A stretch of 64,000 nucleotides of DNA. It comes from Escherichia phage vB_EcoM_Schickermooser. The stretch lies in sequence record NC_048196.1, one strand, 5' to 3'. A model generated the notes under the pieces. It had not been told where the DNA came from, searched no databases, and saw only the letters and a program-made list of their open reading frames with translations. Both the position numbers and the translations under genes were made by a program. Shown here piece after piece: positions 614-56,516 of this stretch; the first letter of the stretch is position 1; each line of letters starts with the position of its first letter.

Positions 614-958
614 ATGCAAGAGAGTAAAAATGTTCCGTTAAGTAGTTTACGTCTAATGAAGTTTTACAAAGCTTGGCTTGCTGGTGAGGTAGAAGGTCAC
701 ACAACGAGTGGTTTGTGCATATGTTTGATTAAGTATGTAGAGGGAACATACCCTGATGAACTGTTACCTCGTCTACAACAAGAGATGAAATCCCAGTTTA
801 TTGGTGCAGGACTAGATTACAATTTCCCGTTTAATGAAGGCGGTTATGAGGAATACACCTTCGAACATAAAAAACATATTTGCCATAAAAACAAACATCG
901 TATACAATGGGTGCTAGATAGAATTCAAGATTATGAAGGAGAGAAAAATGCCAAATAA
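614..958 (+). CDS. early paralog family A, member 1 (hypothetical)
   Basis: SD-like GAGGAG upstream; shares FYKAW / TSGLC.CL / GLDYN.PFN / RIQWV motifs with five other ORFs. Confidence 0.6.
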   Translation: MQESKNVPLSSLRLMKFYKAWLAGEVEGHTTSGLCICLIKYVEGTYPDELLPRLQQEMKSQFIGAGLDYNFPFNEGGYEEYTFEHKKHICHKNKHRIQWVLDRIQDYEGEKNAK

Positions 959-1316
959 TATTCCGTTGAGTAGTGCAACATTGCTTCGCTTCTATAAAGC
1001 ATGGATTGCCAACTATCCTGCAATGAATCGCACAACGAGTGGCTTATGTGGTTGTCTGGTAGACTATGTAGATGATTTTGTTGGTGAGACAACTAGAGAA
1101 GAAGATAGAAGATGGCGTGATCATTTGTTAGACCGTTTGAAATATGAAATGAGGAAACAATTTACATGTGCAGGGCTGGACTACAATCTTCCGTTCAATG
1201 CAGATTGCATGGATTACCTTTCAGAGTGTATAAACTTGGCGTGTCATACCAACGAGTTACGTATTCAGTGGGTGAAAGATCGCATTGAAGATGCAAATAA
1301 TGCTTGCATTGAATAA
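948..1316 (+). CDS. early paralog family A, member 2 (hypothetical)
   Basis: start moved to ATG 948 (AAGGAG upstream); same motif set; overlaps previous stop. Confidence 0.6.
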   Translation: MPNNIPLSSATLLRFYKAWIANYPAMNRTTSGLCGCLVDYVDDFVGETTREEDRRWRDHLLDRLKYEMRKQFTCAGLDYNLPFNADCMDYLSECINLACHTNELRIQWVKDRIEDANNACIE

Positions 1317-1365
1317 AGATGTTTGTATAATGGATGACATAACAGATAGCCAATGAGGAGATGAA

Positions 1366-1575
1366 ATGAAGAATTTGAAAACTGTCACAATGTTCTTGAC
1401 TAATCCTACACGTGTGCAAGCACTGGCTAAAGCCAGCCGTGTAGCTGTAGAATTCCAAAACTTTAAGCCGTCCGTTGTGACAGGCAGTGAAACGTGTGTT
1501 ATCGATTTCATTAACGAATACTTCCGAGGGAATCCGGTTGGTCGTTACTTTATTAAGGGTCTGAAGGATGCATAA
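1366..1575 (+). CDS. hypothetical protein
   Basis: ORF with GAGGAG upstream, co-oriented array. Confidence 0.45.
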   Translation: MKNLKTVTMFLTNPTRVQALAKASRVAVEFQNFKPSVVTGSETCVIDFINEYFRGNPVGRYFIKGLKDA

Positions 1576-1576
1576 C

Positions 1577-1798
1577 ATGAAACGCATGAAAATTCGTATT
1601 GAGAATGATGGTGGTTATAAAGGACTTACCCGTGCAAAATTCCCACTTGTGTTGGAAGCTACGGTGGAATACAGTGGGCTTGCTCATGTGCGATTCTCGA
1701 AGATGATGGAAGTGCAGGAATGGTTTTGGGACGAGATAGATGCACGAGAAGGGGAAGATTATGTTTTCTTTCCTCACGAATATGAAATTGTCTATTAA
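1577..1798 (+). CDS. hypothetical protein
   Basis: ATG 1577 after GAAGGA; co-oriented array. Confidence 0.45.
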   Translation: MKRMKIRIENDGGYKGLTRAKFPLVLEATVEYSGLAHVRFSKMMEVQEWFWDEIDAREGEDYVFFPHEYEIVY

Positions 1799-1810
1799 GG
1801 GTTGTGTGCA

Positions 1811-2050
1811 ATGATCACACCACAACAGAATGAAGCAGCAATGGATCTTCTCGATAGTTTGTATTTCGATAATTGGTACTCTGAATGTGAATGGATGAAT
1901 ATGCAAACTCTGAAAGAGAAGACAGAAGCGTTGATTACAGTAGATCAATTTCTTGCAGAGACGGAAAGAATGAATTATGATATGGCATCTCGCGCACGAC
2001 GCGTTTCCATTTTCAATAAAATGTTAGCATTATGGGGAGGTAGAAAATGA
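1811..2050 (+). CDS. hypothetical protein
   Basis: ORF; ATG 1811 preferred over TTG 1802. Confidence 0.4.
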   Translation: MITPQQNEAAMDLLDSLYFDNWYSECEWMNMQTLKEKTEALITVDQFLAETERMNYDMASRARRVSIFNKMLALWGGRK

Positions 2051-2508
2051 AACAACTATCTATACTGGAAGCGCATGTGCAATGTGTTGTAGATTATGTC
2101 AAAGAACACTCAAGTTTGTTGAATGTAACCTGTGCAGTGCAAAACGATGTAGGTATTGTCTGTGTGCAACATATCTTATCTGAAACTCGTTATGAAGTAT
2201 TTCGTGCCACGTTGTTTGGATGTGATCGAGTGCATGTAAACTTCCTGGACTCCAATTATCGTTATGCTTTAGAAAATATTGATGATTATCTTCCTTGCTC
2301 TCCGACAGGATATGTAATGGTAACAGCAAACGAAGTAACACCAAGCAACAGTGAGCGGGAAGCTTTGTTACGGAAGAAAATACGCCAACTGCAAGTGTTG
2401 AATGAACTGAAAGAAGAGATTGAAAAAGAGCTAAAAGAAGATTTTGGTATGCTTCCAAAAGACGCTTTGAAATGGTATGATGAACTAGGAGGAGAGAGCA
2501 ATGTTTAA
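2047..2508 (+). CDS. hypothetical protein
   Basis: GGGGAGG SD upstream; start overlaps previous stop. Confidence 0.55.
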   Translation: MKQLSILEAHVQCVVDYVKEHSSLLNVTCAVQNDVGIVCVQHILSETRYEVFRATLFGCDRVHVNFLDSNYRYALENIDDYLPCSPTGYVMVTANEVTPSNSEREALLRKKIRQLQVLNELKEEIEKELKEDFGMLPKDALKWYDELGGESNV

Positions 2509-2959
2509 AGAAGGTCATGTCTACCGTTTCCAGGATGAGGATTATATGCGACTATATTCTACCTTTGATAACAGTATTGCGGCTATCATTGGAGAGAATT
2601 TTTTCGAGGTGTTGAGCACTGATGCAAATGGTAATATCTTGTCAATGGTTGTAATAGGTATGAGAGATGGTATTATCACTGCTGGTGATGGGGATCGTTA
2701 CATAATCAATTCTGCTCATATAGATTATTTTGTTGACGGCGGTGTTCGTGGTGGTCGTGGAAAACCCCAAGAAGAACCTGTTGATACAACAAAAGAAGAG
2801 TGGTATGTTGTAATGACTGGTGACACCTGTATTTCTGGATCTCAAAATTATGAAGAAGCTTTGAAAGAAGCAGCGGAGCATAAAATGGCTAATCCTACAG
2901 AAGAGGTTGAAGTTTATAAACGTTTGGTTGTTGCTACCATCGGCGTATCTTTTGTTTAA
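2501..2959 (+). CDS. MFK-family protein 1 (hypothetical)
   Basis: N-terminus MFKEGHVYRF and C-terminal EVYKRLVVATIG shared with the next two ORFs. Confidence 0.55.
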   Translation: MFKEGHVYRFQDEDYMRLYSTFDNSIAAIIGENFFEVLSTDANGNILSMVVIGMRDGIITAGDGDRYIINSAHIDYFVDGGVRGGRGKPQEEPVDTTKEEWYVVMTGDTCISGSQNYEEALKEAAEHKMANPTEEVEVYKRLVVATIGVSFV

Positions 2960-2971
2960 AAGGAGAATGTT

Positions 2972-3757
2972 ATGTTTAAAGTAGGTTTTGTTTACAACTT
3001 CAAATCGGAAGATACCAAAAACAATTTTGGTAAAGCTAGTATTCGTAATGCCTTTTTTGTAGGTTGCATCCAAGATAGTAAATTTAAAGTTTTGGATGTT
3101 GATTTTCTTGGTTCTGTATCCAAGGTGAAGGTATTAGACACAAATAAAATCATCGAAGGTGGTTCTGGGCTTTTCCCTGAAGGTTATAAGCTTGTAAGTT
3201 GTATGGATTATACTCGTTTTGAAGAACATACTCCTGAAGATTATGAAGATTCTCCTACAGGAGGCTGTGTCTTTGTAGAAGGTGGTGTCTATAAGTTTGC
3301 AAGTGAACAAGATCGTAAGCTTTTCGCCAATTATATTGACGGAGGACAAACGACAAACAATGTAAACCGAAAAATTTCCGATCTTATTGGTGATGATCCT
3401 TTCGTGATCACAAAGATGGTTGGACAAGATGTAACAGCAATCCGTAGGCTTGTATGTAATACAAATCATGTAGCAGGTGAAGGTTGGTTCAAGGAAGCTT
3501 GTGCGCTGCTAATCAAAAGCGATAACCCTTATTTTAAAAATATTAAAGATGTTGTTGAGCCTAAACAAGAGGAATCCGCAGCGAATTTTAAACACTATGC
3601 TATTGTTAAAGGTATGAATGTCCAACTGGTGTCACATTCTTACGAAGAGATCGCCACAGAAGCAAAAAAGATGAAAGAAGAATACCCAATTTCTACTGTT
3701 GAGATCTATGAGCGTATTGGTGTTGTTAGTATTGAGCCTACTGCGGTAATAAAATAA
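2972..3757 (+). CDS. MFK-family protein 2 (hypothetical)
   Basis: N-terminus MFKVGFVYNF; AAGGAG SD upstream. Confidence 0.6.
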   Translation: MFKVGFVYNFKSEDTKNNFGKASIRNAFFVGCIQDSKFKVLDVDFLGSVSKVKVLDTNKIIEGGSGLFPEGYKLVSCMDYTRFEEHTPEDYEDSPTGGCVFVEGGVYKFASEQDRKLFANYIDGGQTTNNVNRKISDLIGDDPFVITKMVGQDVTAIRRLVCNTNHVAGEGWFKEACALLIKSDNPYFKNIKDVVEPKQEESAANFKHYAIVKGMNVQLVSHSYEEIATEAKKMKEEYPISTVEIYERIGVVSIEPTAVIK

Positions 3758-3766
3758 GGAGCTATT

Positions 3767-4204
3767 ATGTTCAAAGCTAATGCTGTTTACTGTTTCAAAA
3801 GCAAAGCTGCATGTGAAGCTTTCTCTACAATCTCTGATGAAAATTTCAAAATGGCAGCTTTGATTGAAGGGTCTTGTTTCCGCGTCGAAGATGTTAGTGA
3901 ATCAGGATCTGTTTGCTCGTTGACTTTATTGGACAGCGGAGATATTATTGAAGCTGGACAGTATCCGTTCAGAAGTTGGGAGATATTGTTAGCTCGCGGA
4001 GAGCGTAACTTTTTTATGTGCGTGTCTGCGGGGGAAGTTGTGAAAGAAACTAAGGATGTTTCTGTTTACAATTCTGAATTTATAAGTTATAGTGAGTATC
4101 AACATCTGGAAGGCATTGTTGGTCACTTGTTATCTCTGATTGACATTGAATGTGATTTGCCTGAATCATTGAAAGAAGAGTTGAAAGCATTAGATCTGCT
4201 GTAA
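3767..4204 (+). CDS. MFK-family protein 3 (hypothetical)
   Basis: N-terminus MFKANAVYCF; AAGGAG SD upstream. Confidence 0.55.
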   Translation: MFKANAVYCFKSKAACEAFSTISDENFKMAALIEGSCFRVEDVSESGSVCSLTLLDSGDIIEAGQYPFRSWEILLARGERNFFMCVSAGEVVKETKDVSVYNSEFISYSEYQHLEGIVGHLLSLIDIECDLPESLKEELKALDLL

Positions 4205-4231
4205 TGTTCCGCACAACGAAAGGAGAATAAA

Positions 4232-4531
4232 ATGAATCTGACCGAACAGTTACGCCGTATTGCAAAAGAAGCTTCCTTCAACTTCCCTGTTGAAGAAGTG
4301 ATCGAGACATGTTTTGCTGAAGCACGAGCGGGAAACTCTTCAAGAAATTTCACGCCATCTGATTTTGGTCTGGATAATTCCCCTACCCACCCAGGGGAAA
4401 TCTACAATCAGGTGAAATGGATGGATGAAGCAGTAGCAATTCTTCGTGAGCGTGGGCTTGTTGTTTATAAAGAAATGGATCTGAACGGGGCATACGAGTG
4501 GATCACTATTGATTGGTCGGAGGTGAAATAA
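4232..4531 (+). CDS. hypothetical protein
   Basis: AAGGAG SD upstream. Confidence 0.55.
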   Translation: MNLTEQLRRIAKEASFNFPVEEVIETCFAEARAGNSSRNFTPSDFGLDNSPTHPGEIYNQVKWMDEAVAILRERGLVVYKEMDLNGAYEWITIDWSEVK

Positions 4532-4740
4532 TGGTTACTATTACATTGACAGTTACACAAGAGCAAGCAGAAGAATTACGTGATGCAGTGGCATACATGG
4601 GACGCTCTTATTATATGCCTTATAAATCACAAGATGTTTTTGCTACAGCCATTGAGAAAGCTTTAAACAAATATCGAGAAACTCATGCCGTTCCTAAAGT
4701 AGCAGCAGAAGAGTTTGGCACTTGGCACGAAGTTAACTAA
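4531..4740 (+). CDS. hypothetical protein
   Basis: ATG 4531 overlaps upstream stop (TAATG); GGAGGTGA SD. Confidence 0.5.
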   Translation: MVTITLTVTQEQAEELRDAVAYMGRSYYMPYKSQDVFATAIEKALNKYRETHAVPKVAAEEFGTWHEVN

Positions 4741-4750
4741 GGAGGTATCG

Positions 4751-4984
4751 ATGAAAGGTAACAAGATGAAAGTTAATCAGGTACCGAGTGCATACACTTT
4801 GTGGCTTGCGCGAGCGTTACACCAGACGATCAAAAATCCTAAGAAGCCAATGAAGAGTGGGAAGAAGTTTATGTCTAAGGGCAAAACAACCTTTGGCTTC
4901 ACTCGTATGTCTGTTAAGATGAAAAGACTGGGGTATAAGCCAAACTACGCTCGTTACCCTTCCGAATACAACTGGTTTGACTAA
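4751..4984 (+). CDS. hypothetical basic protein
   Basis: ATG 4751 after AAGGAGG; lysine-rich product. Confidence 0.5.
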   Translation: MKGNKMKVNQVPSAYTLWLARALHQTIKNPKKPMKSGKKFMSKGKTTFGFTRMSVKMKRLGYKPNYARYPSEYNWFD

Positions 4985-4999
4985 AGAGGAGAACAAAAC

Positions 5000-5302
5000 A
5001 TGAAAACATTTATTCGCGTAAAACATGATCCGAACAGCAGTTACCCATACGCGTATGTTGAACGTCATGAAGGAGACTATTACACCATAAAACGTAAAGT
5101 CCCAACTGATACAGGGTTTAACTTCGATGTTATCGCACTGGATGATCAAGGTGTTGATAATCTGGTGAACGCATTACTCGCATTGAAGGAAGCACGATAT
5201 GAAAATCCGACTAATCGAAAAGGGGATACCATCTTCGAAACCCGTAAAGGGGAGATCACAGAGATTCCAGGAGAAAGATTATGGCTACTTTTCAACAACT
5301 GA
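5000..5302 (+). CDS. hypothetical protein
   Basis: AGAGGAG SD upstream. Confidence 0.55.
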   Translation: MKTFIRVKHDPNSSYPYAYVERHEGDYYTIKRKVPTDTGFNFDVIALDDQGVDNLVNALLALKEARYENPTNRKGDTIFETRKGEITEIPGERLWLLFNN

Positions 5303-5458
5303 AAGATGTTTCACGTTTAGTAAGAAAAATCCGAGAAGCAGACGCTGCTGTGCGAAATGCACTAACACCAGCAGAGCGTGAAGATCTTGAAGAGGAGGTG
5401 AAAACAGCCGAGAATGCTTTTGCTGCGTATCTTTCAACACTGCACACAGGAGGTTAAA
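5282..5458 (+). CDS. hypothetical small protein (58 aa)
   Basis: ATG 5282 after GGAGAAAG; stop overlaps next ATG (TAAATG). Confidence 0.4.
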
Positions 5459-5772
5459 TGTCAGAGGAACTTAAAGAATTTTATCAGGCATATCATAACT
5501 GGCTGTTAGCTGGTGCTCCAGATAATAATCCTTTCTGGCATGATAAAGGGTTATGTAGCTGCCTATATCTTTGGTCGGGTGGTTATGATGACCTAAATTA
5601 TGAAATGCAAATGCAATTCCGCGAAGCAGGTTTGTCTGAAGAATACCCGTTTGATGATGGGGATTGGTTTAAATATGATTTTGCACAAAGAAACGGGCTG
5701 CTACATTTGAATGCTGCCCGTATAAAATGGGTAAAAGATCATGCTACACAGGAGGATGTGCAATGCCTATAG
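5458..5772 (+). CDS. early paralog family A, member 3 (hypothetical)
   Basis: motifs FYQAYHNWL / GLCSCL / RIKWVKDH. Confidence 0.6.
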   Translation: MSEELKEFYQAYHNWLLAGAPDNNPFWHDKGLCSCLYLWSGGYDDLNYEMQMQFREAGLSEEYPFDDGDWFKYDFAQRNGLLHLNAARIKWVKDHATQEDVQCL

Positions 5773-5963
5773 TGTTTGTTTTCTTGGCGATTGCTATGGT
5801 AGTTCTTTTCGCTGCATGGCTTTGGGATTTTGACCCAGGAGCCGCGCAGCAAAGAGCTACGGACTTGAAAGAACAATGTATTGTGCTCAAACATGAACGA
5901 AATGCGGAGAAATTTCTTGACCTGGAGTGTGATCGCCTTGTAAGATACAAGCAAGACAAATAA
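5763..5963 (+). CDS. small membrane protein
   Basis: ATG 5763 after CAGGAGG; hydrophobic stretch IVFVFLAIAMVVLFAAWLW. Confidence 0.5.
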   Translation: MPIVFVFLAIAMVVLFAAWLWDFDPGAAQQRATDLKEQCIVLKHERNAEKFLDLECDRLVRYKQDK

Positions 5964-5977
5964 CCTTGAGGTGCAAA

Positions 5978-6166
5978 ATGGTAATTGAGATTAAACTTGA
6001 GTATGCTGGCGCTGTTGCTCTGATCGCACAAATGCTTGGAGCAAAGATTGAAGAAGTGTATATCAACGCTTGGAGCGTAGAGATTGATGTTCCTATGGAC
6101 AACATTGCTAATCGCTTGCTGGTGGCAGAGTGTGAACGCACCAACATAATCTACAAAGGAGCATAA
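5978..6166 (+). CDS. hypothetical protein
   Basis: ATG 5978 after GAGGTG. Confidence 0.45.
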   Translation: MVIEIKLEYAGAVALIAQMLGAKIEEVYINAWSVEIDVPMDNIANRLLVAECERTNIIYKGA

Positions 6167-6167
6167 T

Positions 6168-6389
6168 ATGAAAATTAGAGTTTGTGATGTATTGGGTTAT
6201 GTTGGTTTTGAGAATGTTCAGATTCCTTTTGTTGTTGAAGCACATCTTGTTAGTGAGGATATGACAACATTCTTTGTTACGATAGAAGAAATGTCCAAAG
6301 TCGAGGGATGGGAGTGGTTTGAAGAAGATGTTTGGGAAGGTTGTGATTACGTATTCTTCTCTGACGAAGTGAAGGTTCTTGCGGAGTAG
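6168..6389 (+). CDS. hypothetical protein
   Basis: AAGGAG SD upstream. Confidence 0.5.
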   Translation: MKIRVCDVLGYVGFENVQIPFVVEAHLVSEDMTTFFVTIEEMSKVEGWEWFEEDVWEGCDYVFFSDEVKVLAE

Positions 6390-6391
6390 GC

Positions 6392-6598
6392 ATGTCTTGT
6401 TTTACGAAAGCAGTGTCCATATGTAAGAAACAGTATGAAAGTGATTACGGAATATTTAATATTCCTGCGGATCATACAGAGTATTGTTCATGCGGTGGCA
6501 GAATGAAGAAAACAGTGATTTATGCGGATAATGGAGATGAACTTGTTCCGGTTATTGTTTGCAAAGCTTGTCATTCTGTTAAAACATTAAAAGCGTAA
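6392..6598 (+). CDS. small zinc-ribbon-like protein
   Basis: Cys pairs CSCGG ... CKACH. Confidence 0.45.
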   Translation: MSCFTKAVSICKKQYESDYGIFNIPADHTEYCSCGGRMKKTVIYADNGDELVPVIVCKACHSVKTLKA

Positions 6599-6694
6599 GG
6601 AGTCGGGACACCCGACGATTGGAGCTAAAAATTTTGCGTACAACCCTTTCTGCCCAACAGGGGGCGCATCGGGTAAACAAAGAGGAGAGTTTAT

Positions 6695-7093
6695 ATGAAA
6701 AAGATCATCGTAGGTTTCTTGTTACTCATTGCATCACTTGGAACAGCAAATGCGTCTCAAGTTTATGAGTGTGTGTCAGATGTGGTTGTTAAAAATCTGA
6801 AAGGTGAAGTGATTTCTGGTCCTAAGAAAATGGCTTCTGTTGTCATTAATAAAGATAACTCCTTTATCCTTAAAAATTCAGGTGGTGCTTTGATGAGTGG
6901 CATTCTGCAATACACAGGAGAAAAAAGTAAAGATGGTAGTGCTATGTACGGTTCACAACAATTTATTGGCACTACTGAAGTGGTTATGCTACGCACAGAA
7001 TATCGGGACACTTTAGCTTGGTTTGCATTTCTTAAAAATGATAAAACAATAACAAATGTTCTTACTCTAGAAGCTGATTGTACTCAACACTAA
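6695..7093 (+). CDS. secreted/periplasmic protein (signal peptide)
   Basis: N-terminus MKKIIVGFLLLIASLGTANA with AxA-type cleavage site; AGAGGAG SD. Confidence 0.6.
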   Translation: MKKIIVGFLLLIASLGTANASQVYECVSDVVVKNLKGEVISGPKKMASVVINKDNSFILKNSGGALMSGILQYTGEKSKDGSAMYGSQQFIGTTEVVMLRTEYRDTLAWFAFLKNDKTITNVLTLEADCTQH

Positions 7094-7180
7094 GAGAGTT
7101 CACCGTAAGATGTTCGAAATCATATTTTTCACTGTGTGTATATTTCTTTTAGGTAGCTTAGTTTATGAATAGGAGTTTAA

Positions 7181-7639
7181 ATGTCTAAAGTTAAACATTA
7201 TGGTGTAAATTGGAGTGATGCTTGGCCTCTATGTAAAGATGACCCTACAGAAGGGACATTTGTAAGATACGAGGATTATAAAGAATTATTAGATGCTGTG
7301 ATCGCATTGTTAGACGATATTCGTTCACGTTATCCAGGACAAGACTTCACTTGTCCTCACATTCAACTTCTTGCTTGTCTAGTAGAAGGTTTGCCAAAGG
7401 AGGTAGAAGAAGGGTTTAAGCGTGTGCAATATCAAGGTGAAACTCTAGATGTTCCTGAATTTGTTAATTATATTACAACAGATTCAAGTGGTGATCGTTA
7501 TGGTTACAGTCATAAGCCAGAGATTCCAGATTTCGTTCATGCTTGGCGTATTCCTTATGAAGTAATCAATGTTGCAGATTGTTGGTATTTAGGAGAAGGA
7601 GACAGCCGTAATTGGCGTGACTCTTTGATTCAGGTTTAA
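7181..7639 (+). CDS. hypothetical protein
   Basis: AGGAG SD upstream. Confidence 0.55.
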   Translation: MSKVKHYGVNWSDAWPLCKDDPTEGTFVRYEDYKELLDAVIALLDDIRSRYPGQDFTCPHIQLLACLVEGLPKEVEEGFKRVQYQGETLDVPEFVNYITTDSSGDRYGYSHKPEIPDFVHAWRIPYEVINVADCWYLGEGDSRNWRDSLIQV

Positions 7640-7643
7640 CAAT

Positions 7644-7907
7644 ATGAAAGAAACATTGCCAGCAGCATATCGTTTGAATGATGAACGTATTTGGGAGTGG
7701 ACCGACGTTTCTTGCTTTTACCCCGAAATAGTTCAGTATTGGCGAGCAAAAGGGTGTGTTGTAGTTATCAATCCTTGTGGACCAGTAGATGAAGATTGCT
7801 TGTATCTCGATGGGAAGTGGCACAGTTATTGTCGCTGGCCTTTTGAGTGGATGTGTAAAGAAGATCTCCCAGAGGGCTGGGAGTATCCAAAAGCAAATAG
7901 GAGATAA
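7644..7907 (+). CDS. hypothetical protein
   Basis: ORF in co-oriented array. Confidence 0.45.
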   Translation: MKETLPAAYRLNDERIWEWTDVSCFYPEIVQYWRAKGCVVVINPCGPVDEDCLYLDGKWHSYCRWPFEWMCKEDLPEGWEYPKANRR

Positions 7908-7908
7908 T

Positions 7909-8271
7909 ATGTCTAAAGATTTTGTTGAAGTATTTGTCAAAGATGAAGAAACTGGTTTAGGCACGGGTTTCATTTGTGAAGAAACTTTTAAACGTGAACA
8001 AGAAAAAGCTATCCTTATGCGAAACTATGATCATGCATTAGAACAATGGAAAAATGCAGAACAAAAATGCAAAAACCTTTATGCAGAAAATAGAAAACTA
8101 CAAGATCAAATGGAGTTGTTAGCTATCAGTTTACGATCTCTCATTTTGGCTGTAGAAGACGGTTTTAAAAATCCAGATGGTTTTCCTGTGAGCGATATTG
8201 AACATGATTTGTATCTTGCTCGTGGTGCTTACTTTTATGTTAAACAGAAGTCTGTAGAAGGAGAGAAGTGA
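7909..8271 (+). CDS. hypothetical protein
   Basis: ATG 7909 after TAGGAGA; upstream part of the listed ORF overlaps the previous gene. Confidence 0.5.
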   Translation: MSKDFVEVFVKDEETGLGTGFICEETFKREQEKAILMRNYDHALEQWKNAEQKCKNLYAENRKLQDQMELLAISLRSLILAVEDGFKNPDGFPVSDIEHDLYLARGAYFYVKQKSVEGEK

Positions 8272-8468
8272 TGGAAGAAAAACTGGAACGTATTATCGAG
8301 TTAGCCATGTCTATTGGCTACGACGATTGTTTTCTCCAAACTATTGGAGAAACACAGAACGATTACGACTCTTGGGTGAAAGAGTTGGAAGAACTCAAAA
8401 CTTCCTTGATTGCTGACTTTGCTGAAGCAGAGGATAAAGCGGATCGTTACAACTATCTGTGTCGATAA
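8268..8468 (+). CDS. hypothetical protein
   Basis: start overlaps previous stop (ATGA-type). Confidence 0.45.
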   Translation: MMEEKLERIIELAMSIGYDDCFLQTIGETQNDYDSWVKELEELKTSLIADFAEAEDKADRYNYLCR

Positions 8469-8471
8469 ACC

Positions 8472-8499
8472 TTGACATTTCTTTTATGTATGGTATACA
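8472..8499 (+). promoter_or_regulatory. sigma70-like promoter candidate
   Basis: TTGACA 8472-8477, 16-nt spacer, TATACA. Confidence 0.4.
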
Positions 8500-8529
8500 T
8501 ACATTATCAACACAGATAAGGAGAGAAAA

Positions 8530-8874
8530 ATGATTAAACTTTTATGTGCAGAGTCTTCTGTCGAGTTCCTTAAAGAGGGTAAGCAGTATCTAGCTTCCCA
8601 AGTTATAGATAATCCAGGTTTGTTTTATATTACAGACGAAGAAGGGGATACCCTGTGTATCTCTTTGATTATGGATTGTGGTCGGTTTCATGTAATTGAG
8701 GATGACACTATTCGTCTCTTTGAGGTTTCCTACACAAAAGACAATGGTCCTGTCCGTAAATATCAAATTCCCGCAAAATCCGCCTTTAACGCATGTGTAC
8801 GATTAGGTCAAATCTACGGGGACGATAAAGATTGTCGTGAAGATGTATTTATCAACGTGATCGAGGTAAAATAA
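8530..8874 (+). CDS. hypothetical protein
   Basis: AAGGAGAG SD upstream. Confidence 0.55.
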   Translation: MIKLLCAESSVEFLKEGKQYLASQVIDNPGLFYITDEEGDTLCISLIMDCGRFHVIEDDTIRLFEVSYTKDNGPVRKYQIPAKSAFNACVRLGQIYGDDKDCREDVFINVIEVK

Positions 8875-9200
8875 TGAAAACAAGTAAAGATTTGATGGAG
8901 TTTTATAAAATTTATCTAGCATGGATTGATGTTGGTGCTCCTGATGGTAAACCTTTTCGGCGGGATTGTGGTTTGTGTGCCAACTTGTTCGATTATGTGC
9001 ACAGAGGTAATTACAACCCCATTATAACAACCTTGTCAGATGAAATGCACGCACAGTTTTACCATAAAGGGTTGAATCAAGGACTCCCTTTCAATGAGAA
9101 CTACGATGCATATGTCTTAGAGTCAGATGCAGATGCCTGTCACCTGAACGTGGACAGAATTAATTGGGTAAGAGATCGTATTGCAGAGGAGGATGAATAA
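8874..9200 (+). CDS. early paralog family A, member 4 (hypothetical)
   Basis: motifs FYKIYLAWI / GLCANL / RINWVRDRI. Confidence 0.6.
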   Translation: MKTSKDLMEFYKIYLAWIDVGAPDGKPFRRDCGLCANLFDYVHRGNYNPIITTLSDEMHAQFYHKGLNQGLPFNENYDAYVLESDADACHLNVDRINWVRDRIAEEDE

Positions 9201-9417
9201 TGTCGGATTATAACTGGTATGAACTTGAAGCTGTTTGTCAGTTTTATGACTCAATAGTTCTGCGTGATCCAATCTGTCAAGAATTGAGTCGCCGTGCAAT
9301 GCAGAGGAGGATGAATAATGTCGGATTATAACTGGTATGAACTTGAAGCTGTTTGTCAGTTTTATGACTCAATAGTTCTGCGTGATCCAATCTGTCAAGA
9401 ATTGAGTCGCCGTGCAA
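9182..9417 (+). repeat. perfect tandem duplication, 2 x 118 bp
   Basis: 9182-9299 is identical base-for-base to 9300-9417. Confidence 0.9.
9200..9331 (+). pseudogene. truncated duplicate of the N-terminus of the 9318 gene (43 codons)
   Basis: first repeat copy carries the same ATG and first 33 codons (MSDYNWYELEAVCQFYDSIVLRDPICQELSRRA), then shifts frame and stops. Confidence 0.4.
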
Positions 9418-9545
9418 GTGCATTGGCAATCCGTGTTAAAATAAACGGTTGGAACGCAGATTTGGAAAAAGAGTTGGAATTTCTCTTAGAAAACACGCGG
9501 GTCTTCCGCAAAGTGTTCCCTGAATGGTTTGAGATGGAAGAATGA
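9318..9545 (+). CDS. hypothetical protein
   Basis: ORF starting in the second repeat copy; GAGGAGG upstream. Confidence 0.5.
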   Translation: MSDYNWYELEAVCQFYDSIVLRDPICQELSRRASALAIRVKINGWNADLEKELEFLLENTRVFRKVFPEWFEMEE

Positions 9546-9763
9546 TCATGTGGATTGTGCGTCTTAAGTATGATGGCCCTAATCCTTGGGTGAGAACAGT
9601 TTGCGGATGTGATACTAAAGAGTCAGCAGATAAAGCTGGAAGAATGATAAGTGCCTTTTATAATAGTAAACCTCTTTGTTTAGAAATGTCTGGTGTGGTT
9701 TGTATGAGCATGTTCGAATACTACTCTTATGAGATCAAAGAACACCAAGGGGAATGGAAATAA
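9542..9763 (+). CDS. hypothetical protein
   Basis: ATGA overlap with previous gene. Confidence 0.45.
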   Translation: MIMWIVRLKYDGPNPWVRTVCGCDTKESADKAGRMISAFYNSKPLCLEMSGVVCMSMFEYYSYEIKEHQGEWK

Positions 9764-9777
9764 ATAGTTGACAGAAG

Positions 9778-9806
9778 GATCTGTCTTTGTCATAATCATC
9801 TCATCG
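9778..9806 (+). promoter_or_regulatory. sigma70-like promoter candidate (TTGACA-N17-CATAAT)
   Basis: TTGACA 9778-9783, CATAAT 9801-9806. Confidence 0.5.
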
Positions 9807-9825
9807 AAACAAAGAGGAGAAAATC

Positions 9826-10314
9826 ATGAAAAAATTTATTTGCACCCGTTCCACTAACAGTGATATCCTTGTAGGTAAGGTTATCAAAGGAGAACTCTTC
9901 CATGCAAACGGTAAGAAATATATTCTGCTGAAAGATTCTTTCAACGGGGAATATCCGCGCTGTACTTTCTTCAATTACAACACTCCGTTTGCTTTAGAAG
10001 GAGATGCTTGGGACTGGGCTGAACTTCATCCTTTCTGTGAAGATGGACAGACAGAAGAGCAGGAAGAATCTACGGGAAGTTTACGTGATAAACTGCGTAA
10101 TAAAGCACTGCAAGCAAATTCCCATTTTACTGAAATGGTAGACGCCGTTCTATTAGAGATTGAAGATTGTGCGGAACAAGGGAAGTTTGAAAAATACTTT
10201 GAACCTTCCAGTTTTGGTTTGTGCAATAACCCTTCTTCTTATGAACAGATAAGTGAACAGAAAAGAGGGGCAAATGTTGTAGCTACAATGCTACGTGCAA
10301 AGGTTTGGATGTAA
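9826..10314 (+). CDS. hypothetical protein
   Basis: AGAGGAG SD upstream. Confidence 0.6.
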   Translation: MKKFICTRSTNSDILVGKVIKGELFHANGKKYILLKDSFNGEYPRCTFFNYNTPFALEGDAWDWAELHPFCEDGQTEEQEESTGSLRDKLRNKALQANSHFTEMVDAVLLEIEDCAEQGKFEKYFEPSSFGLCNNPSSYEQISEQKRGANVVATMLRAKVWM

Positions 10315-10389
10315 CATTGGCAACCGCAGAGCACAGTATTTTTGGGATTATCAAACACATCATTATTAGTTGGAACTAAAGGAGAGAAT

Positions 10390-10689
10390 ATGCAAGTTGA
10401 AGACCTGATCCACATTCTGAATAAAGCTAAAGAGAAGGGTGCTATCAAAGACTGGAAACGTGAAACAAGTGAAGATTTATCTCATTGTTGCCGAGAGTTT
10501 TACATCGAAGGTATTGCTGACGATCATTATACTATCGAATGGTATATCAACTTAATGACCCTTAAGCACGGTTCATTTGAGATTTGGTTTGATGCTATTG
10601 ATGTAAATGGTTTTCATCCTGGATATAAGATTGCTATGCAGTTATCTTATCGCAGAGAAGTTGTAGCTCATTTGGGTTTACATAACTAA
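10390..10689 (+). CDS. hypothetical protein
   Basis: ATG 10390 after AAAGGAGAG. Confidence 0.5.
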   Translation: MQVEDLIHILNKAKEKGAIKDWKRETSEDLSHCCREFYIEGIADDHYTIEWYINLMTLKHGSFEIWFDAIDVNGFHPGYKIAMQLSYRREVVAHLGLHN

Positions 10690-10699
10690 GGAGAAAAGA

Positions 10700-11023
10700 A
10701 TGCAAGCAGTTGTTAACGAAGCTATTATGAACTTATCTTTCTTGTTAGCTGGTTTAGGAGGTGTTCTCATAGGTTTGGCTCTTATCTGGTGTATTCGTCG
10801 ATTAATCGGGTACCGACAAAAAGGTGTTTCATGTTTTGTATCTTACAATTTTACAACTGCTTACAGCAATGAGGTTGGATCTGGCAATGCTCAAGCATTT
10901 TTACCAACATATCCTCCTACGGTGGAAGATATTAGAAACTTGGAAGTAGAACTTATGGGACTAGGTGATAACTATACATCTCTAGTTATTCAAAATATTT
11001 TTCGACTAAAACAGGGGGCGTGA
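10700..11023 (+). CDS. membrane protein
   Basis: AAGGAG SD; hydrophobic segment LSFLLAGLGGVLIGLALIWCI. Confidence 0.55.
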   Translation: MQAVVNEAIMNLSFLLAGLGGVLIGLALIWCIRRLIGYRQKGVSCFVSYNFTTAYSNEVGSGNAQAFLPTYPPTVEDIRNLEVELMGLGDNYTSLVIQNIFRLKQGA

Positions 11024-11215
11024 ATGAAGGTACATTACCCTCATCCATTTGATCCTAAAAAAAAAGCCGTAATTCTTCGTCAGTGGCAACGGGTTTGTCG
11101 TACTAAATGTCCAATCAATAGCCCACACAATGTAGACAAGGACTATCTGGGACATTTGTTGAATACACTACATAGAAAAACAAGCGTAAACAACATGTCG
11201 AGGAATACTGCTTAA
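11024..11215 (+). CDS. hypothetical protein
   Basis: ORF abutting previous stop. Confidence 0.4.
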   Translation: MKVHYPHPFDPKKKAVILRQWQRVCRTKCPINSPHNVDKDYLGHLLNTLHRKTSVNNMSRNTA

Positions 11216-11244
11216 GAGTAGAATGGCTGTAAATAATAAATACC

Positions 11245-11273
11245 TTGACAAGTGTTTATTCGTTTTGTAAAGT
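11245..11273 (+). promoter_or_regulatory. sigma70-like promoter candidate (TTGACA-N17-TAAAGT)
   Basis: TTGACA 11245-11250, TAAAGT 11268-11273. Confidence 0.45.
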
Positions 11274-11302
11274 GAGAATACAGCAATGGTTTAGGAGCGG
11301 TT

Positions 11303-11955
11303 ATGAAAAAGTTTGTTGTTTACAGTCGTCTTTCTAACAGAAAAAAGGTGAGGCACACATGGTATGGAGAGCCAAGAGAATGATATCCGTTACTTCTTAG
11401 GTGTGATGCGGAAGTTATTGGTCAATTTTCTGAATACTATTCGGGTAAGGCGATTGGAAGCAACGTAAGGAACTGGTTAAAGGTTGAAATGTGTAAAGCT
11501 ACCGGAGCATTATTGGTAAAGTTGACCGCTTGGGTCGTAACAACGCCTCCGTAGCAACTCTTCTAGAAATGATTGATGTTAAGATAGCCATCATGCCAGA
11601 CGCAGATAAAATGGTTATACAGCTTCTGTCTGTTCTGGCTGAACAAGAAGTTAGAGGTATTGCTGATCGTATTAAAAAGGGTCTTGCTGTAGCAAAAAGC
11701 AAAGGTGTTTTATTAGGCAGTGCTAATCCTAAAACTGCCGCTGCACGTAGAAAAGGAAAAATGGAATACAACTCTGTTAAAGCAGACGCTTTTGCAGAGA
11801 CATTCCGTGAACGCTTGGAGATCCTTAGAGATTTAAATACACCTTACAAAACTATTGCTGAAAAATTCAATAGTAAGAAAATAGCAACAGCACGTGGTGG
11901 TAAATGGGATGCTAAAACTGTTTCTCGTTTGTGTGCCAGACTGAACATTAAATAG
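11303..11955 (+). pseudogene. decayed serine recombinase (resolvase/invertase-like)
   Basis: N-terminus MKKFVVYSRLS (Y.R.S catalytic-like) hits in-frame TGA at 11381-11383; downstream SGKA and, in another frame, KVDRLGRN; one missing base near 11524 would restore VKLDRLGR. Confidence 0.45.
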
Positions 11956-11963
11956 GAGAGGAT

Positions 11964-12371
11964 ATGAAACAAGAAAATGAATCTATAGATCACTTAATCA
12001 TGCTGTCAGCCCTTTTTGCCGGATGGGACGTATTTTTTGAAAATTTGTTCAATTCTGCTACAGATGGTTCCGATTTTATGCGCCAATTTAAACGACGAAC
12101 TGTTGAGGACTATGCTTTCTATTCAGGTCGGATTGAAAAAGGTTACGAAGATACAAATACAACACTCACCATTAAAGTTTTAGATGTGATGTTTAGTGTT
12201 ATAGATGCTATCGACGAAAGTCTTCCGATCCTAGATAATTGTAATACGAAAGCCTATGTTTACAAAATAGCCCGTGCTTATGTGTCTGCAAACAGTTGTC
12301 TTCTTTCCACCCAAATTGCGGTGAACAATCTTGCCAACTTGTCGATGAAGGAAACTTTTTATGACAATTGA
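11964..12371 (+). CDS. hypothetical protein
   Basis: AGGAGAGG SD upstream. Confidence 0.55.
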   Translation: MKQENESIDHLIMLSALFAGWDVFFENLFNSATDGSDFMRQFKRRTVEDYAFYSGRIEKGYEDTNTTLTIKVLDVMFSVIDAIDESLPILDNCNTKAYVYKIARAYVSANSCLLSTQIAVNNLANLSMKETFYDN

Positions 12372-12723
12372 TTTGAAGTGTAAGAGGATTCTTTTAGATT
12401 TCTATAATAATTGGTTAGAACACCTCCGTCTCTTTCCACGAGAAAGTGGTTACGCTGATGTTGGCTTATGCCGAGGTCTACGTATGTATATAAGTGATGA
12501 ATTTCGAGCCGATCATTCTTTATATTCTGTTTATGGTATGCAATTAGCCAGTTTTGAAAATGCTGGTTTAGATACAACTTTCCCGTTTAACACAGCAAAA
12601 TCTTTTGAGCAAGAGTGTAAGGAAAAACGTTGCATGTTTAATGAAAAACGTGTACAGTGGGTTAAGGAGCGAGTTAAACAACTGGAACAAGAGTTGGATT
12701 TCTTCTATGATGAGGCAGAATAA
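12361..12723 (+). CDS. early paralog family A, member 5 (hypothetical)
   Basis: motifs FYNNWL / GLCRGL / RVQWVKERV. Confidence 0.6.
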   Translation: MTIDLKCKRILLDFYNNWLEHLRLFPRESGYADVGLCRGLRMYISDEFRADHSLYSVYGMQLASFENAGLDTTFPFNTAKSFEQECKEKRCMFNEKRVQWVKERVKQLEQELDFFYDEAE

Positions 12724-12995
12724 TGGATAGACAAACCTTAAAAACAATGGCAGATGCCACTAATTCCCCGTACTTTGAAAAAGTAAGTAAATTGGTAGCT
12801 CAAGCCGCAGAGGAAGGATATTATAACATAAACATCCACAACCCAAGTCTTATACTAGAAATGCCAGGTGATAAGAAGATACAAGAGAGTATCTGTGAAG
12901 GTATTGTTAGTTACTGGCGCGAGCGTGGGTGTGGTGCAAACATGGCTTTAGACAGTGCAAACATTGTAAGATATATAAATATTTCTTGGGGGTGA
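12723..12995 (+). CDS. hypothetical protein
   Basis: TAATG overlap with previous gene. Confidence 0.5.
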   Translation: MDRQTLKTMADATNSPYFEKVSKLVAQAAEEGYYNINIHNPSLILEMPGDKKIQESICEGIVSYWRERGCGANMALDSANIVRYINISWG

Positions 12996-12999
12996 TTTT

Positions 13000-13611
13000 A
13001 TGATTCAATGCACTCATATCCAAATTACTTGGAGAGATGAACTTTACCATTTAGGACAATTTACTGTAGGGGAAACATACCCTGTCATTAAACATAATCC
13101 TAACATCGCAAACTTTGACAGGATGGTTCTTGTTGAGGACGATCTAGGTCAAACTTATTCTTTAGATCTAAAATATCCGTTTTCTTACGGCTACGATTGG
13201 ATCGTTACTTTTGAAGACGTGGAGGAAAATAAAACAATGAACGAAAAAAATTCTTGGTATTATCGTTGTGAACTGCCGCCAGTAGGTGAAAAGGTTATCT
13301 TTGTTCCTGATTTGGAAAGATATTCTTGGGACAGTTCTTATTCTGTTCCTAAAGAAGGCACCGAAGTTGAAGTTATTGCACATCGCACAACTTCGCATGG
13401 TAACGATGTAGCAGTTGTTTTCTGGGATGATGAAGGCGCTGCTTGTGCAGGGGGCTTTGTTGCAGGTAATTTTGAACCACTGCCAGATCCTTTGAAGGAG
13501 GCAATTTTAGGCGTAGCTTCTTTTGGACTCTCTTACACATCTGCACAAGAGATCGTAGAAGGTATTTTAAACGGTACCGTTCCAAACGAAATTTTTAAAC
13601 AGATTAAATAA
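13000..13611 (+). CDS. hypothetical protein
   Basis: 203-aa ORF. Confidence 0.55.
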   Translation: MIQCTHIQITWRDELYHLGQFTVGETYPVIKHNPNIANFDRMVLVEDDLGQTYSLDLKYPFSYGYDWIVTFEDVEENKTMNEKNSWYYRCELPPVGEKVIFVPDLERYSWDSSYSVPKEGTEVEVIAHRTTSHGNDVAVVFWDDEGAACAGGFVAGNFEPLPDPLKEAILGVASFGLSYTSAQEIVEGILNGTVPNEIFKQIK

Positions 13612-13618
13612 TAGTTGC

Positions 13619-13645
13619 ACCCCGTTCTGCGGGGTGTTATTGTAT
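13619..13645 (+). terminator. intrinsic terminator candidate
   Basis: 7-bp GC-rich stem CACCCCG/CGGGGTG followed by T-rich tract. Confidence 0.45.
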
Positions 13646-13661
13646 ACGTAAAGGAGCGCTA

Positions 13662-14000
13662 ATGTATTACACTGAAGACTACATATTATATAACTTTTTT
13701 AAAGGCTGGTTGGAATGGGCGGAAAAAGCTCCTGTTGGAGATTGTGTTTTTCCTTGGGACTCTCGTCAAGGTTTGTGTCGTTGTTTGGAAGATTGGCTTA
13801 TAACCACAAGCTACAACTCAGAAACTAAGAAATCTACATCAAACAGATTAAAAATGTTATTTGAAGAAGATGGTTTAGATCCAATTTATCCTTTCGGTGC
13901 TGAAAGCTTCCACAATGGTCTTTTTCTTGGTACTCAACATTATGACAAAGATCGCGTAGATTGGGTAAAAGAAAAGGTAGCACAGTATGAATGGGGTTAA
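13662..14000 (+). CDS. early paralog family A, member 6 (hypothetical)
   Basis: motifs FFKGWLEW / GLCRCL / RVDWVKEKV. Confidence 0.6.
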   Translation: MYYTEDYILYNFFKGWLEWAEKAPVGDCVFPWDSRQGLCRCLEDWLITTSYNSETKKSTSNRLKMLFEEDGLDPIYPFGAESFHNGLFLGTQHYDKDRVDWVKEKVAQYEWG

Positions 14001-15309: not shown

Positions 15310-15525
15310 ATGAGTTCCAATTTTCTATACAAAGCAAAAGATTCACGAGATGGAGAGAACCATTGGTGGTTGATCACAGGAGATGGTGTTATCATCCTAC
15401 CGTGGGACGGAGAGACAAAAGTTCAAATACTAGAGAAAGTAAAAGGTGTTAGTTTTAATGTTAGTCATGACATAACAACTTTCAAAGCTTTTGCTATGAA
15501 TCCTAGTCTTGTTGCTGAATGGTAA
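15310..15525 (+). CDS. hypothetical protein
   Basis: CAGGAGGAAG SD upstream. Confidence 0.5.
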   Translation: MSSNFLYKAKDSRDGENHWWLITGDGVIILPWDGETKVQILEKVKGVSFNVSHDITTFKAFAMNPSLVAEW

Positions 15526-15538
15526 TCCAGGAGAAAAT

Positions 15539-15757
15539 ATGACTAAAATGTATGCAGCCGTTGATAAGCTGGATGGGTCTGATTCTGTTTTTATTTTGAA
15601 TAAAATGGGTGTCTTAGTTTATGCCCGAACTTCTCAAAACATAGAACACCAAGTGGAAGCAGCACAAATTTTAGAGCAAATAACCCCTCCATACCTATAC
15701 TCAAATGTTGAGCGTTTTAACGATGCACTTGGTTTGACGTTAATAGCGGAATGGTAG
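15539..15757 (+). CDS. hypothetical protein
   Basis: ATG 15539 after CAGGAGAAAAT. Confidence 0.5.
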   Translation: MTKMYAAVDKLDGSDSVFILNKMGVLVYARTSQNIEHQVEAAQILEQITPPYLYSNVERFNDALGLTLIAEW

Positions 15758-16822: not shown

Positions 16823-17431
16823 ATGGAAGAGAAGATTTGGGATGGTAAAGATCCTTTAGAAGTTGGACATGTAGCGCGTGTCAAAAAATCTACTACAGGT
16901 CCTGGTTTTTCTGGTTTGTATCATATACCAGAAGAAGGTCAGCACGTTACAATTTTGGCTCGTGACAAACAAAACGGAGCAACGCCTGTGTGGATTGTTC
17001 GTTGGTATGACAAAGATCTTAACATTTGCTTGTCACCTATTATGGCTCATTTGCTGGAAGCCCCTTGCTCTGAAGAAGCTCTGATTTTTGTTTCGGCTTT
17101 TCAGAAAGCCACAGGTTTAACATTAGATGCAAAAGATGTGCAAAAAGCATTTGACATTATTCAGGAAGACAACGATACTACATCTAACGACGAACTGGTT
17201 GAAGTTACAATCTTATCTTCAGCAGATATCCGAGAGATTGATAAATGTGATTTTCCAATCACATTTAAAATGTCGCAGAAAGACATGCAGTCATCTGGAA
17301 GTTGTTTTGGTATACCTCGTTGGTTTTTTGATTCTATCAAAAATTCTACTACAGAGGGATCAGACTATGATCAAGATGACATGCTTTGGTTCTTAAAAAA
17401 CCGAGAGATTGTTCTCTCACCACTTAAATAA
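16823..17431 (+). CDS. hypothetical protein
   Basis: TTAGGAGG SD upstream; 202 aa. Confidence 0.6.
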   Translation: MEEKIWDGKDPLEVGHVARVKKSTTGPGFSGLYHIPEEGQHVTILARDKQNGATPVWIVRWYDKDLNICLSPIMAHLLEAPCSEEALIFVSAFQKATGLTLDAKDVQKAFDIIQEDNDTTSNDELVEVTILSSADIREIDKCDFPITFKMSQKDMQSSGSCFGIPRWFFDSIKNSTTEGSDYDQDDMLWFLKNREIVLSPLK

Positions 17432-17440
17432 GGAGAAATA

Positions 17441-17542
17441 ATGGTTTCATTTATCGTAGGTGTAGTTGTAGGCTATCTTATTAACAAATATCAAGACGTT
17501 ATCACGGCAAAAGTAAAAGACATTTTAGACTCATCTAAATAA
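17441..17542 (+). CDS. small membrane peptide (33 aa)
   Basis: AAGGAGAAATA then ATG; product MVSFIVGVVVGYLI... Confidence 0.35.
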   Translation: MVSFIVGVVVGYLINKYQDVITAKVKDILDSSK

Positions 17543-17594
17543 TCTATCAAAGCTGCATCTTCAATAGGTGCAGCCTTTTAAAAGGAGATATGGC

Positions 17595-17768
17595 ATGACT
17601 AAACGCACTGATTTTAAATGTATGCATTGTGGGAAATCTTTTGGGGATCATCAAGCTCGCACATTCAACTGTCCACGTAAAGGTCGCGGAAATTTTAAAG
17701 GTTTTAATCCCGCACATGTTTATTCTCCAGATTACGATAAGCCAGAAGAAGAAAAATTTGTTATTTAA
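17595..17768 (+). CDS. small zinc-finger-like protein
   Basis: ATG 17595 after AAAAGGAGA; CMHCG ... C motif. Confidence 0.45.
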   Translation: MTKRTDFKCMHCGKSFGDHQARTFNCPRKGRGNFKGFNPAHVYSPDYDKPEEEKFVI

Positions 17769-17780
17769 TAAGGAGGTCAT

Positions 17781-18062
17781 ATGGAACTCGTTCAAGAATT
17801 GTATAATGCTTTAGGAGCAAAAGGAAAAGATTGGCCCGAACATGCACTTATTGCTATAAGAGACTCCGATGGTGAGATTAAGTTTTCAAGCGTAAGTAAA
17901 GAGCACATCGTAGAAACAAAACTGGGTATTTACATGCGTGGAACTTATTGCTTATTCAACACCAGAATGGTAGAAGCCCCTGTTATCGAGGATGGAACAA
18001 AAGATTGCCCCACAATCGTAACAAAATCTGAATATGAGAAGTTTTTCTACGCTAAGGCTTGA
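17781..18062 (+). CDS. hypothetical protein
   Basis: TAAGGAGGT SD upstream. Confidence 0.55.
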   Translation: MELVQELYNALGAKGKDWPEHALIAIRDSDGEIKFSSVSKEHIVETKLGIYMRGTYCLFNTRMVEAPVIEDGTKDCPTIVTKSEYEKFFYAKA

Positions 18063-18384: not shown

Positions 18385-18428
18385 GCTAGAACCCACCTAA
18401 ATCGAACAGAGACGCTCTAAAATAGAAA

Positions 18429-18450
18429 AGGCACCCACTTGGGTGCCTTT
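18429..18450. terminator. bidirectional terminator between convergent genes
   Basis: 10-bp stem AAGGCACCCA/TGGGTGCCTT with A-run upstream and T-run downstream. Confidence 0.55.
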
Positions 18451-56021: not shown

Positions 56022-56023
56022 AA

Positions 56024-56098: not shown

Positions 56099-56100
56099 GA

Positions 56101-56286: not shown

Positions 56287-56294
56287 AAAAACTA

Positions 56295-56324: not shown

Positions 56325-56332
56325 ATAAGTAT

Positions 56333-56423: not shown

Positions 56424-56428
56424 GGTTA

Positions 56429-56514: not shown

Positions 56515-56516
56515 AG

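Follow-up and report, generated by a model that had tools for sequence, protein, structure and literature searches.

What are the six small and visibly similar open reading frames (ORFs) that recur over some 13 kb near one end of a large Escherichia phage sequence, and what might a single phage gain from carrying so many of them? The window analyzed here, a stretch of 64,000 nucleotides (nt) from Escherichia phage vB_EcoM_Schickermooser (NC_048196.1), contains six plus-strand ORFs that make up one paralogue family, at positions 614 to 958, 948 to 1316, 5458 to 5772, 8874 to 9200, 12361 to 12723, and 13662 to 14000 (referred to below as copies 1 to 6, in this order). An all-against-all BLASTP comparison of window ORFs of at least 45 amino acids (aa) linked the six pairwise at E values of 1e-6 to 1e-31 and showed them to be the largest paralogue family of the window, the other families having at most two members. 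A hidden Markov model (HMM) built from the six sequences and run with filters off against 654 six-frame window ORFs returned exactly these six (E = 1e-40 to 1e-45); with the next-best match at E = 0.22, there was neither a seventh copy nor a pseudogene copy among those ORFs. Because of these E values, the similarity lies far beyond chance and is not a matter of low complexity, and the six-copy family put forward in the original prediction is borne out. As argued below, it counts as an expanded small accessory gene family of lytic phages.

A six-way alignment of the proteins contains 15 invariant columns (in copy-1 numbering, M1, L14, F17, G33, L34, C35, L38, F62, G66, L67, P72, F73, R96, W99, and V100). 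The ordered set of four motifs by which the family had been recognized could be retained nearly as written, with small deviations in copies 1, 2, 3, 4, and 6. G-L-C-x-[CGN]-L is present in all six copies, whereas the first motif is better described as F-[YF]-x-x-[WY] (Y for W in copies 3 and 4; FF in copy 6), the third as G-L-[DNS]-x-x-[YFL]-P-F (L before P-F in copies 2 and 4), and the C-terminal one as R-[IV]-x-W-V-[KRL]-[DE] (L for K/R in copy 1). Each ORF is preceded, 5 to 10 nt upstream, by a Shine-Dalgarno sequence, and five of the six products are acidic, with an isoelectric point (pI) of 4.5 to 5.3, the product of copy 1 being near neutral (pI 6.5). All six proteins are identical to annotated vB_EcoM_Schickermooser proteins (HOV53_gp001, 002, 015, 026, 036, and 039, respectively), each a "hypothetical protein," and the ORFs are real, functional genes. 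The label "hypothetical" runs through the public records, with a single exception: one Escherichia coli assembly names a fusion of copies 1 and 2 "Anti-restriction nuclease."

As to the identity of the family, all six proteins matched PHROG 2510 (function unknown; E = 5e-26 to 3e-32), with weaker matches to PHROG 6418 and PHROG 27059, and PVOG VOG7392 appears in the annotation of phage alia. The PHROG 2510 matches span profile positions of about 4 to 113 of 219, so that each copy corresponds to roughly half of the profile; its length may be explained by two-domain members, such as RHEph08 gp07 (219 aa). Beyond this entry, none of the six proteins had a match above threshold in Pfam-A or NCBIfam (closest, E = 0.066 for YaeQ and E = 0.013 for a LisH motif, both well short of the cutoff) or in PADLOC (best, PifA at E = 0.014), and the family profile matched no PDB sequence, whether built from six or from 127 sequences. 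One PDB entry, 4rd8, had appeared at E = 0.29 with the six-sequence profile; it was gone with the 127-sequence profile and was treated as a chance match. That the family was not recognized in the original prediction thus holds for these resources as well. Our literature searches found no functional report for PHROG 2510, N4 gp3, Phapecoctavirus anti-defense, or Schitoviridae counter-defense and no paper describing the family or its Phapecoctavirus expansion, and the CRISPRi-ART paper with its supplements contained no usable entry for it. In short, the family is catalogued and its sequences are public, yet it is unnamed, uncharacterized, and without a structural relative.

The domain is nevertheless widespread. 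When 1.84 billion cluster representatives (clusters at 50% identity) were searched exhaustively with the profile, 2,059 homologous clusters emerged at an E value of ≤1e-3 and 1,259 at ≤1e-10. Most homologues are stand-alone proteins of about 100 aa, and 19 of the 150 best clusters have two or three domains per chain; a Pfam scan of ten multidomain or otherwise extended homologues detected no known domain beyond a weak zinc ribbon. With tblastn, 260 of 50,697 phage records were matched, the named hosts being Proteobacteria only. Carriers include N4-like phages, T7-like phages of Burkholderia, Ralstonia, and Rhizobium, large myoviruses, and small enterobacterial siphoviruses (Salmonella phage Akira and Shigella phage Sf12), and the family thereby spans N4-like, T7-like, and T1-like phages and large myoviruses of alpha-, beta-, and gammaproteobacteria. 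Only 1 of 72,556 plasmids was matched, and structural matches in BFVD were uncharacterized phage proteins throughout; on the basis of phage records, plasmids, and these structural matches, the family appears to be phage restricted. One homologue adjoins YqaJ and RecT genes, suggesting that temperate-type phages carry the domain too. Narrower searches returned less: a word-indexed protein search gave only 20 to 23 close matches (all lacking both a Pfam domain and an informative name), a narrow pattern search of a genome collection gave one contig of a metagenome-assembled genome, and the pattern RIQWVKD gave no confirmed locus in viral contigs. We also noticed several 146-kb records named "Campylobacter phage" that contain three or four family copies and look like misattributed Stephanstirmvirinae.

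Conservation was evaluated, in copy-4 numbering, over a diverse set of 127 members (mean column identity, 26%). In this set, L34, C35, P72, F73, R95, and W98 are invariant, and L7, F10, Y11, W17, G21, G33, Q61, F62, L67, and V99 are conserved in at least 90% of the members. While conserved residues are mostly aromatic or aliphatic, a number of polar positions stand out, namely Q61 (92%), N92 (89%), E57 and H90 (84% each), H102 (77%), and R30 (75%). Within the window, E57 is missing from copies 5 and 6 and H90 from copy 5, and position 102 is R or K in five of the six copies. The cysteine is kept in nearly every domain of the multidomain homologues. In helices 3 and 5, the conserved polar residues occupy the same helix faces as the conserved hydrophobic ones (i, i+3, i+4, i+7 spacing), and because of these common faces they probably point into the helix bundle, a placement derived from sequence spacing and predicted secondary structure.

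AlphaFold2 modeling of copy 4 produced five helices (predicted local distance difference test [pLDDT], 92.6; predicted template modeling score [pTM], 0.85), and an independent model of copy 6, the most divergent copy, showed the same helix order (pLDDT, 94.4; pTM, 0.88). These two copies, which have diverged the most, thus give the same confident five-helix fold, and we confidently predict a domain of about 100 residues whose fold has no solved relative: the model resembled no chain among PDB structures (with no Ocr, ArdA, AsiA, Acb2, or Tad-type match). Amino acid changes among orthologues of copy 4 cluster in loops (residues 24 to 32, 44 to 52, 63 to 70, and 86 to 88), and only 1 of the 29 variable positions is conserved in the family.

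How did six copies come to reside in one genome? Their number varies among relatives, from five in vB_Ec-G1 through six in the window and in ev052 and seven in phAPEC8 and ECO340P1 to nine in phiWec179 (Justusliebigvirus alia has two), and it changes between otherwise near-identical genomes. In vB_Ec-G1, copies 1 and 2 have recombined into a single 124-aa gene (614 to 988), with the join in a shared "PLSS" segment; the same recombinant is found in ESCO5 and in many assemblies. Tandem arrays are present elsewhere as well, with three copies in a row in phiWec179 and a tandem pair on one metagenomic phage contig. At a cutoff of 65% identity, the Phapecoctavirus genomes examined contain at least 13 orthogroups. 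Identities between the window copies are 24 to 52%, compared with 34% to N4 gp3 and 36% to the homologue in Akira; because the copies are as distant from each other as from these proteins of other phages, they are old lineages or separate acquisitions rather than recent duplicates.

The original prediction went on to suggest a family diversifying under selection. Nei-Gojobori counts were summed over pairs between the window and five relatives, giving gene-wide ratios of nonsynonymous to synonymous change (dN/dS). For the family, dN/dS was 0.131 (202 synonymous and 124 nonsynonymous differences; range per copy, 0.02 to 0.31), close to the 0.139 of the other genes of the block. Since these orthologue values are low, each copy is maintained by purifying selection, as are the neighboring genes, and these gene-wide counts revealed no excess of amino acid change among orthologues, which does not agree with the suggested diversification. 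The corresponding ratio among paralogues is uninformative, because synonymous sites are expected to be saturated at 24 to 52% protein identity. What turns over is gene content, that is, copy number.

The genomic setting bears on when these genes might be expressed. The phage is a Phapecoctavirus. The first 16 kb of the window are 96 to 98% identical to Phapecoctavirus genomes (phAPEC8 and relatives; Stephanstirmvirinae), and the six genes sit within a plus-strand run of about 50 small genes. This run ends at a hairpin (18427 to 18450; 10-bp stem, with T-runs on both strands) where plus- and minus-strand genes meet and the GC skew changes sign, and which is likely a bidirectional terminator, judging from these features. 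Positions 1 to 16 kb are 96 to 97% identical to relatives, with many indels, whereas the part from 16 to 64 kb, containing replication, nucleotide-metabolism, and structural genes, is 99.2 to 99.6% identical, a contrast that represents either a sharp difference in rate or mosaic exchange.

In other phages, homologues lie at early positions. The N4-type gp3 gene is located between gp2 and the RNAPII genes gp15/16, and N4 gp1, gp2, gp15, and gp16 are early genes (PMC4496689). Gene gp5 of the T7-like phage JG068 follows annotated host promoters and precedes the early (first) terminator, and gp06 and gp07 of RHEph08, also T7-like, belong to the leftmost operon, at most 3 kb from the left end. The literature yielded no transcript data for any Phapecoctavirus. 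Thus, the part of the original prediction that placed the family in an early region is supported by its homologues, whereas early expression of the six genes in this phage is something that we infer from position; overall, the family is probably early and accessory.

What, then, might these proteins do? We tentatively prefer, as a quite possible explanation, that the six copies are host-directed binding modules on one scaffold. The paralogues, long-diverged versions of a phage-restricted five-helix domain, would be cytoplasmic, mostly acidic, and most likely made early in infection. An aromatic core with a small polar cluster (Cys35 and Arg95, together with Gln61, Glu57, His90, and Asn92) would form the scaffold, and the variable loops would provide each paralogue with a partner of its own, be it a component of host defense or of host housekeeping; in their working form, the domains may be paired as dimers or heterodimers. 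The binding activity, the host-protein targets, and the oligomerization are what we infer, and small size, accessory character, variable loops, tandem and fused arrangements, and fast gain and loss fit the pattern expected of host-directed binding modules. We also entertained a more sweeping proposal, which we consider doubtful: that the undescribed fold is a general-purpose conflict module of Proteobacteria phages, serving either as a loop-variable binder or as a tiny Cys/Arg-dependent enzyme or ligand trap. If so, binder paralogues would each neutralize a different target in host immunity or housekeeping, and a Phapecoctavirus genome would hold a shuffled set of five to nine versions taken from a pool of 13 or more subfamilies.

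Several observations weigh against host-directed binding modules. No experimental or expression data for any family member were found in the literature, and the invariant polar residues of the six paralogues fit a shared chemistry (a ligand, metal, or catalytic site) no less well than they fit six separate protein partners. At the sequence level, where selection is purifying and amino acid change shows no gene-wide excess, nothing points to an arms race in progress. No known counter-defense gene recurs as a neighbor across unrelated phages, and we found no evidence linking the family to a defense system. In the region, sigma-70-like promoters are not clearly enriched (63 versus 52.9 ± 7.6 expected), and 4 of the 10 best plus-strand promoter-like sites fall in the intergenic 12% of the sequence. 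Finally, an exceptional susceptibility to restriction-modification systems has been reported for Vequintavirinae and their relatives (PMC8594841), and this speaks against anti-restriction in particular as the role.

The residue pattern is what brings in another explanation, which we rate as conceivable, albeit not probable: the family may consist of very small enzymes or of ligand or metal binders (e.g., sponges for a signaling nucleotide or a metabolite), with Cys35, Arg95, Gln61, Glu57, His90, Asn92, and His102 lining one pocket in an aromatic-rich bundle and the paralogues differing in ligand or substrate. That Cys35 and Arg95 remain unchanged in 100% of the 127 members across such divergence suggests a shared chemistry, and the retained cysteine of the multidomain homologues and the predicted inward orientation of the polar residues would also agree with a pocket. 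A Cys/His/Glu metal site was considered and not adopted, His102 being missing from five of the six copies and Glu57 from copies 5 and 6. It is unlikely, in our estimation, that the role is internal to the phage, with the copies acting as adaptors, chaperones, or regulators that pair with phage partners encoded next to them, although there is one suggestive case. In Justusliebigvirus alia, a 194-aa ORF (17252 to 17836) combines a family domain (resembling copy 4 at E = 2e-14) with a homologue (E = 3e-8) of the next window gene downstream of copy 4 (9318 to 9545, plus strand, 75 aa), a fusion which hints that the products of copy 4 and of this gene work together and makes the latter a possible functional partner. 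Moreover, in close relatives, the copy 4 stop codon overlaps the start codon of this gene (TAATG), and such overlaps with neighbors fit cotranslation with partners, as the strong purifying selection on each orthologue fits an internal role. However, apart from the alia fusion, no neighbor family is common to unrelated carrier phages, and copies are freely gained and lost among phages that are 96 to 99% identical, which would be unusual for a core program.

Anti-restriction, in the manner of T4 Arn (the anti-restriction nuclease of that phage, an inhibitor of McrBC) or of acidic DNA mimics like Ocr or ArdA, has the "Anti-restriction nuclease" label mentioned above to recommend it, along with the small size, mostly acidic character, and early-type positions of the proteins. 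We nevertheless judge it very improbable and largely refuted: T4 Arn aligned with the 127-sequence profile at an hhalign probability of only 0.08% (E = 0.62) and with the labeled protein itself at a BLASTP E value of 8.9, no DNA mimic or other anti-restriction structure was among the structural matches, and the relatives are highly sensitive to restriction-modification, as cited above. The label was rejected, there being no similarity to T4 Arn. As for the idea that the motifs are chance or low-complexity matches, or that the ORFs are not genes at all, nothing was found in its favor, and its probability is negligible in view of the HMM and BLASTP results, the 2,059 homologous clusters, the concordant folds of copies 4 and 6, and the low dN/dS. 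Host-directed binding modules on a common scaffold remain our tentative preference, and a host-directed or counter-defense toolkit is a sensible, though unproven, role to consider for the family.

What this offers is a well-defined experimental target and not a mechanism. Establishing what a single member does would at one stroke annotate thousands of phage genes, among them N4 gp3, a gene of a model phage that has no assigned role. If the family does serve counter-defense or host takeover, the Phapecoctavirus repertoire of five to nine copies would be a natural series for the study of specificity. Phages of the Phapecoctavirus type are often proposed for therapy of pathogenic E. coli.

The individual copies differ in several respects. 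Copy 1 (114 aa; HMM E = 8e-42; PHROG 2510 E = 5e-26; orthologue dN/dS 0.06) has a GAGGAG Shine-Dalgarno sequence, and shares its last 11 nt with the beginning of copy 2. The latter (122 aa; PHROG 2510 E = 7e-26; dN/dS 0.30) is the tandem partner of copy 1, to which it is 52% identical, and has a 13-residue insertion between helices 2 and 3; an alternative start at 933 would give 127 aa, but position 948 is preceded by the better Shine-Dalgarno sequence and corresponds to the start annotated for relatives in GenBank. Nearest to the consensus of the wider family is copy 3 (104 aa; pI 4.5; PHROG 2510 E = 6e-29; dN/dS 0.02), which retains His102 and follows an AGGAGG Shine-Dalgarno sequence. Copy 4, besides being modeled as described above, encodes 108 aa (pI 4.8; PHROG 2510 E = 3e-32) and has the highest orthologue dN/dS, 0.31. 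Copy 5 (120 aa; PHROG 2510 E = 8e-27) shows a 3-nt indel relative to its relatives and, although lacking Glu57 and His90, retains Cys35, the Pro-Phe pair, Arg95, and Trp98. Lastly, copy 6 (112 aa; pI 4.7; PHROG 2510 E = 2e-26; dN/dS 0.08) is only 24 to 28% identical to the other five, and a terminator-like hairpin (13617 to 13637) is located upstream of it.

At the end of copy 4, we observed a perfect 118-nt tandem duplication (9182 to 9299 and 9300 to 9417) that comprises 19 nt from the end of this copy plus 99 nt from the start of the next gene, so that a truncated 5' fragment precedes the complete gene at 9318 to 9545. The near-identical relative ev052 lacks the duplication, which thus either arose very recently or is an artifact of assembly.

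The same block of small genes contains further paralogues. Three pairs (1568 to 1798 and 6168 to 6389; 4232 to 4531 and 9826 to 10314; and 15310 to 15525 and 15509 to 15757) show that gene duplication is general to the block and not peculiar to one family. In addition, three adjacent genes (2501 to 2959, 2972 to 3757, and 3767 to 4204) with similar "MFK.G.VY.F" N termini form a second paralogue family; some records name them "goF mRNA metabolism modulator," which is a record label only. At about 11303 to 11955 lies a serine recombinase (resolvase/invertase) gene that is a 672-nt coding sequence (CDS) in ev052, vB_Ec-G1, phAPEC8, and ECO340P1. The window version has six small deletions (1, 1, 7, 1, 2, and 7 nt) in its first ~250 nt and no amino acid change in its 3' 430 nt, leaving a C-terminal ORF of 141 aa (11530 to 11955); either the catalytic domain is decaying or this stretch of sequence is of poor quality. 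Far downstream, ten tRNA genes (Met, Arg, Ser, Asn, Thr, Gly, Gln, Pro, Ile, and Met) occupy positions 55947 to 57871, together with an eleventh tRNA-like match (56645 to 56729; Rfam, 39 bits) that was not called by ARAGORN.

Among known systems, N4 gp3 is the closest and belongs to the same family by sequence (family HMM E = 7e-21; 32 to 34% identity). A tblastn search with copy 4 against Enquatrovirus placed its match (32% identity over 93% of the query; E = 3e-7) on the CDS "gp3 [Escherichia phage N4]," and the N4 protein ABK54374.1 falls in the family cluster. Matching the copies in size and in its position among small left-end genes, gp3 differs in number, N4 and most other phages having one copy, compared with six in this phage and up to nine in its relatives. 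The match names the family without explaining it, since no member has an assigned function.

T7 Ocr, ArdA, and T4 Arn are likewise small, mostly acidic, early located, and nonessential looking, a resemblance of lifestyle only; unlike the family, they are not multicopy and do not have the invariant Cys/Arg cluster, and neither their sequences nor their folds are similar to it. The Tad1, Tad2, and Acb2 sponges, set beside the family by description, are also small, phage restricted, and widespread, with conserved pocket-forming residues, and they are the model for a ligand-binding role, but the family model had no structural match to them in the PDB. Comparable in genomic behavior are the lineage-specific expansions of small genes in large lytic phages, which share with the family its diverged paralogues, tandem pairs, gain and loss of copies, and hypervariable block, and from which it differs in that its domain is not confined to one lineage.

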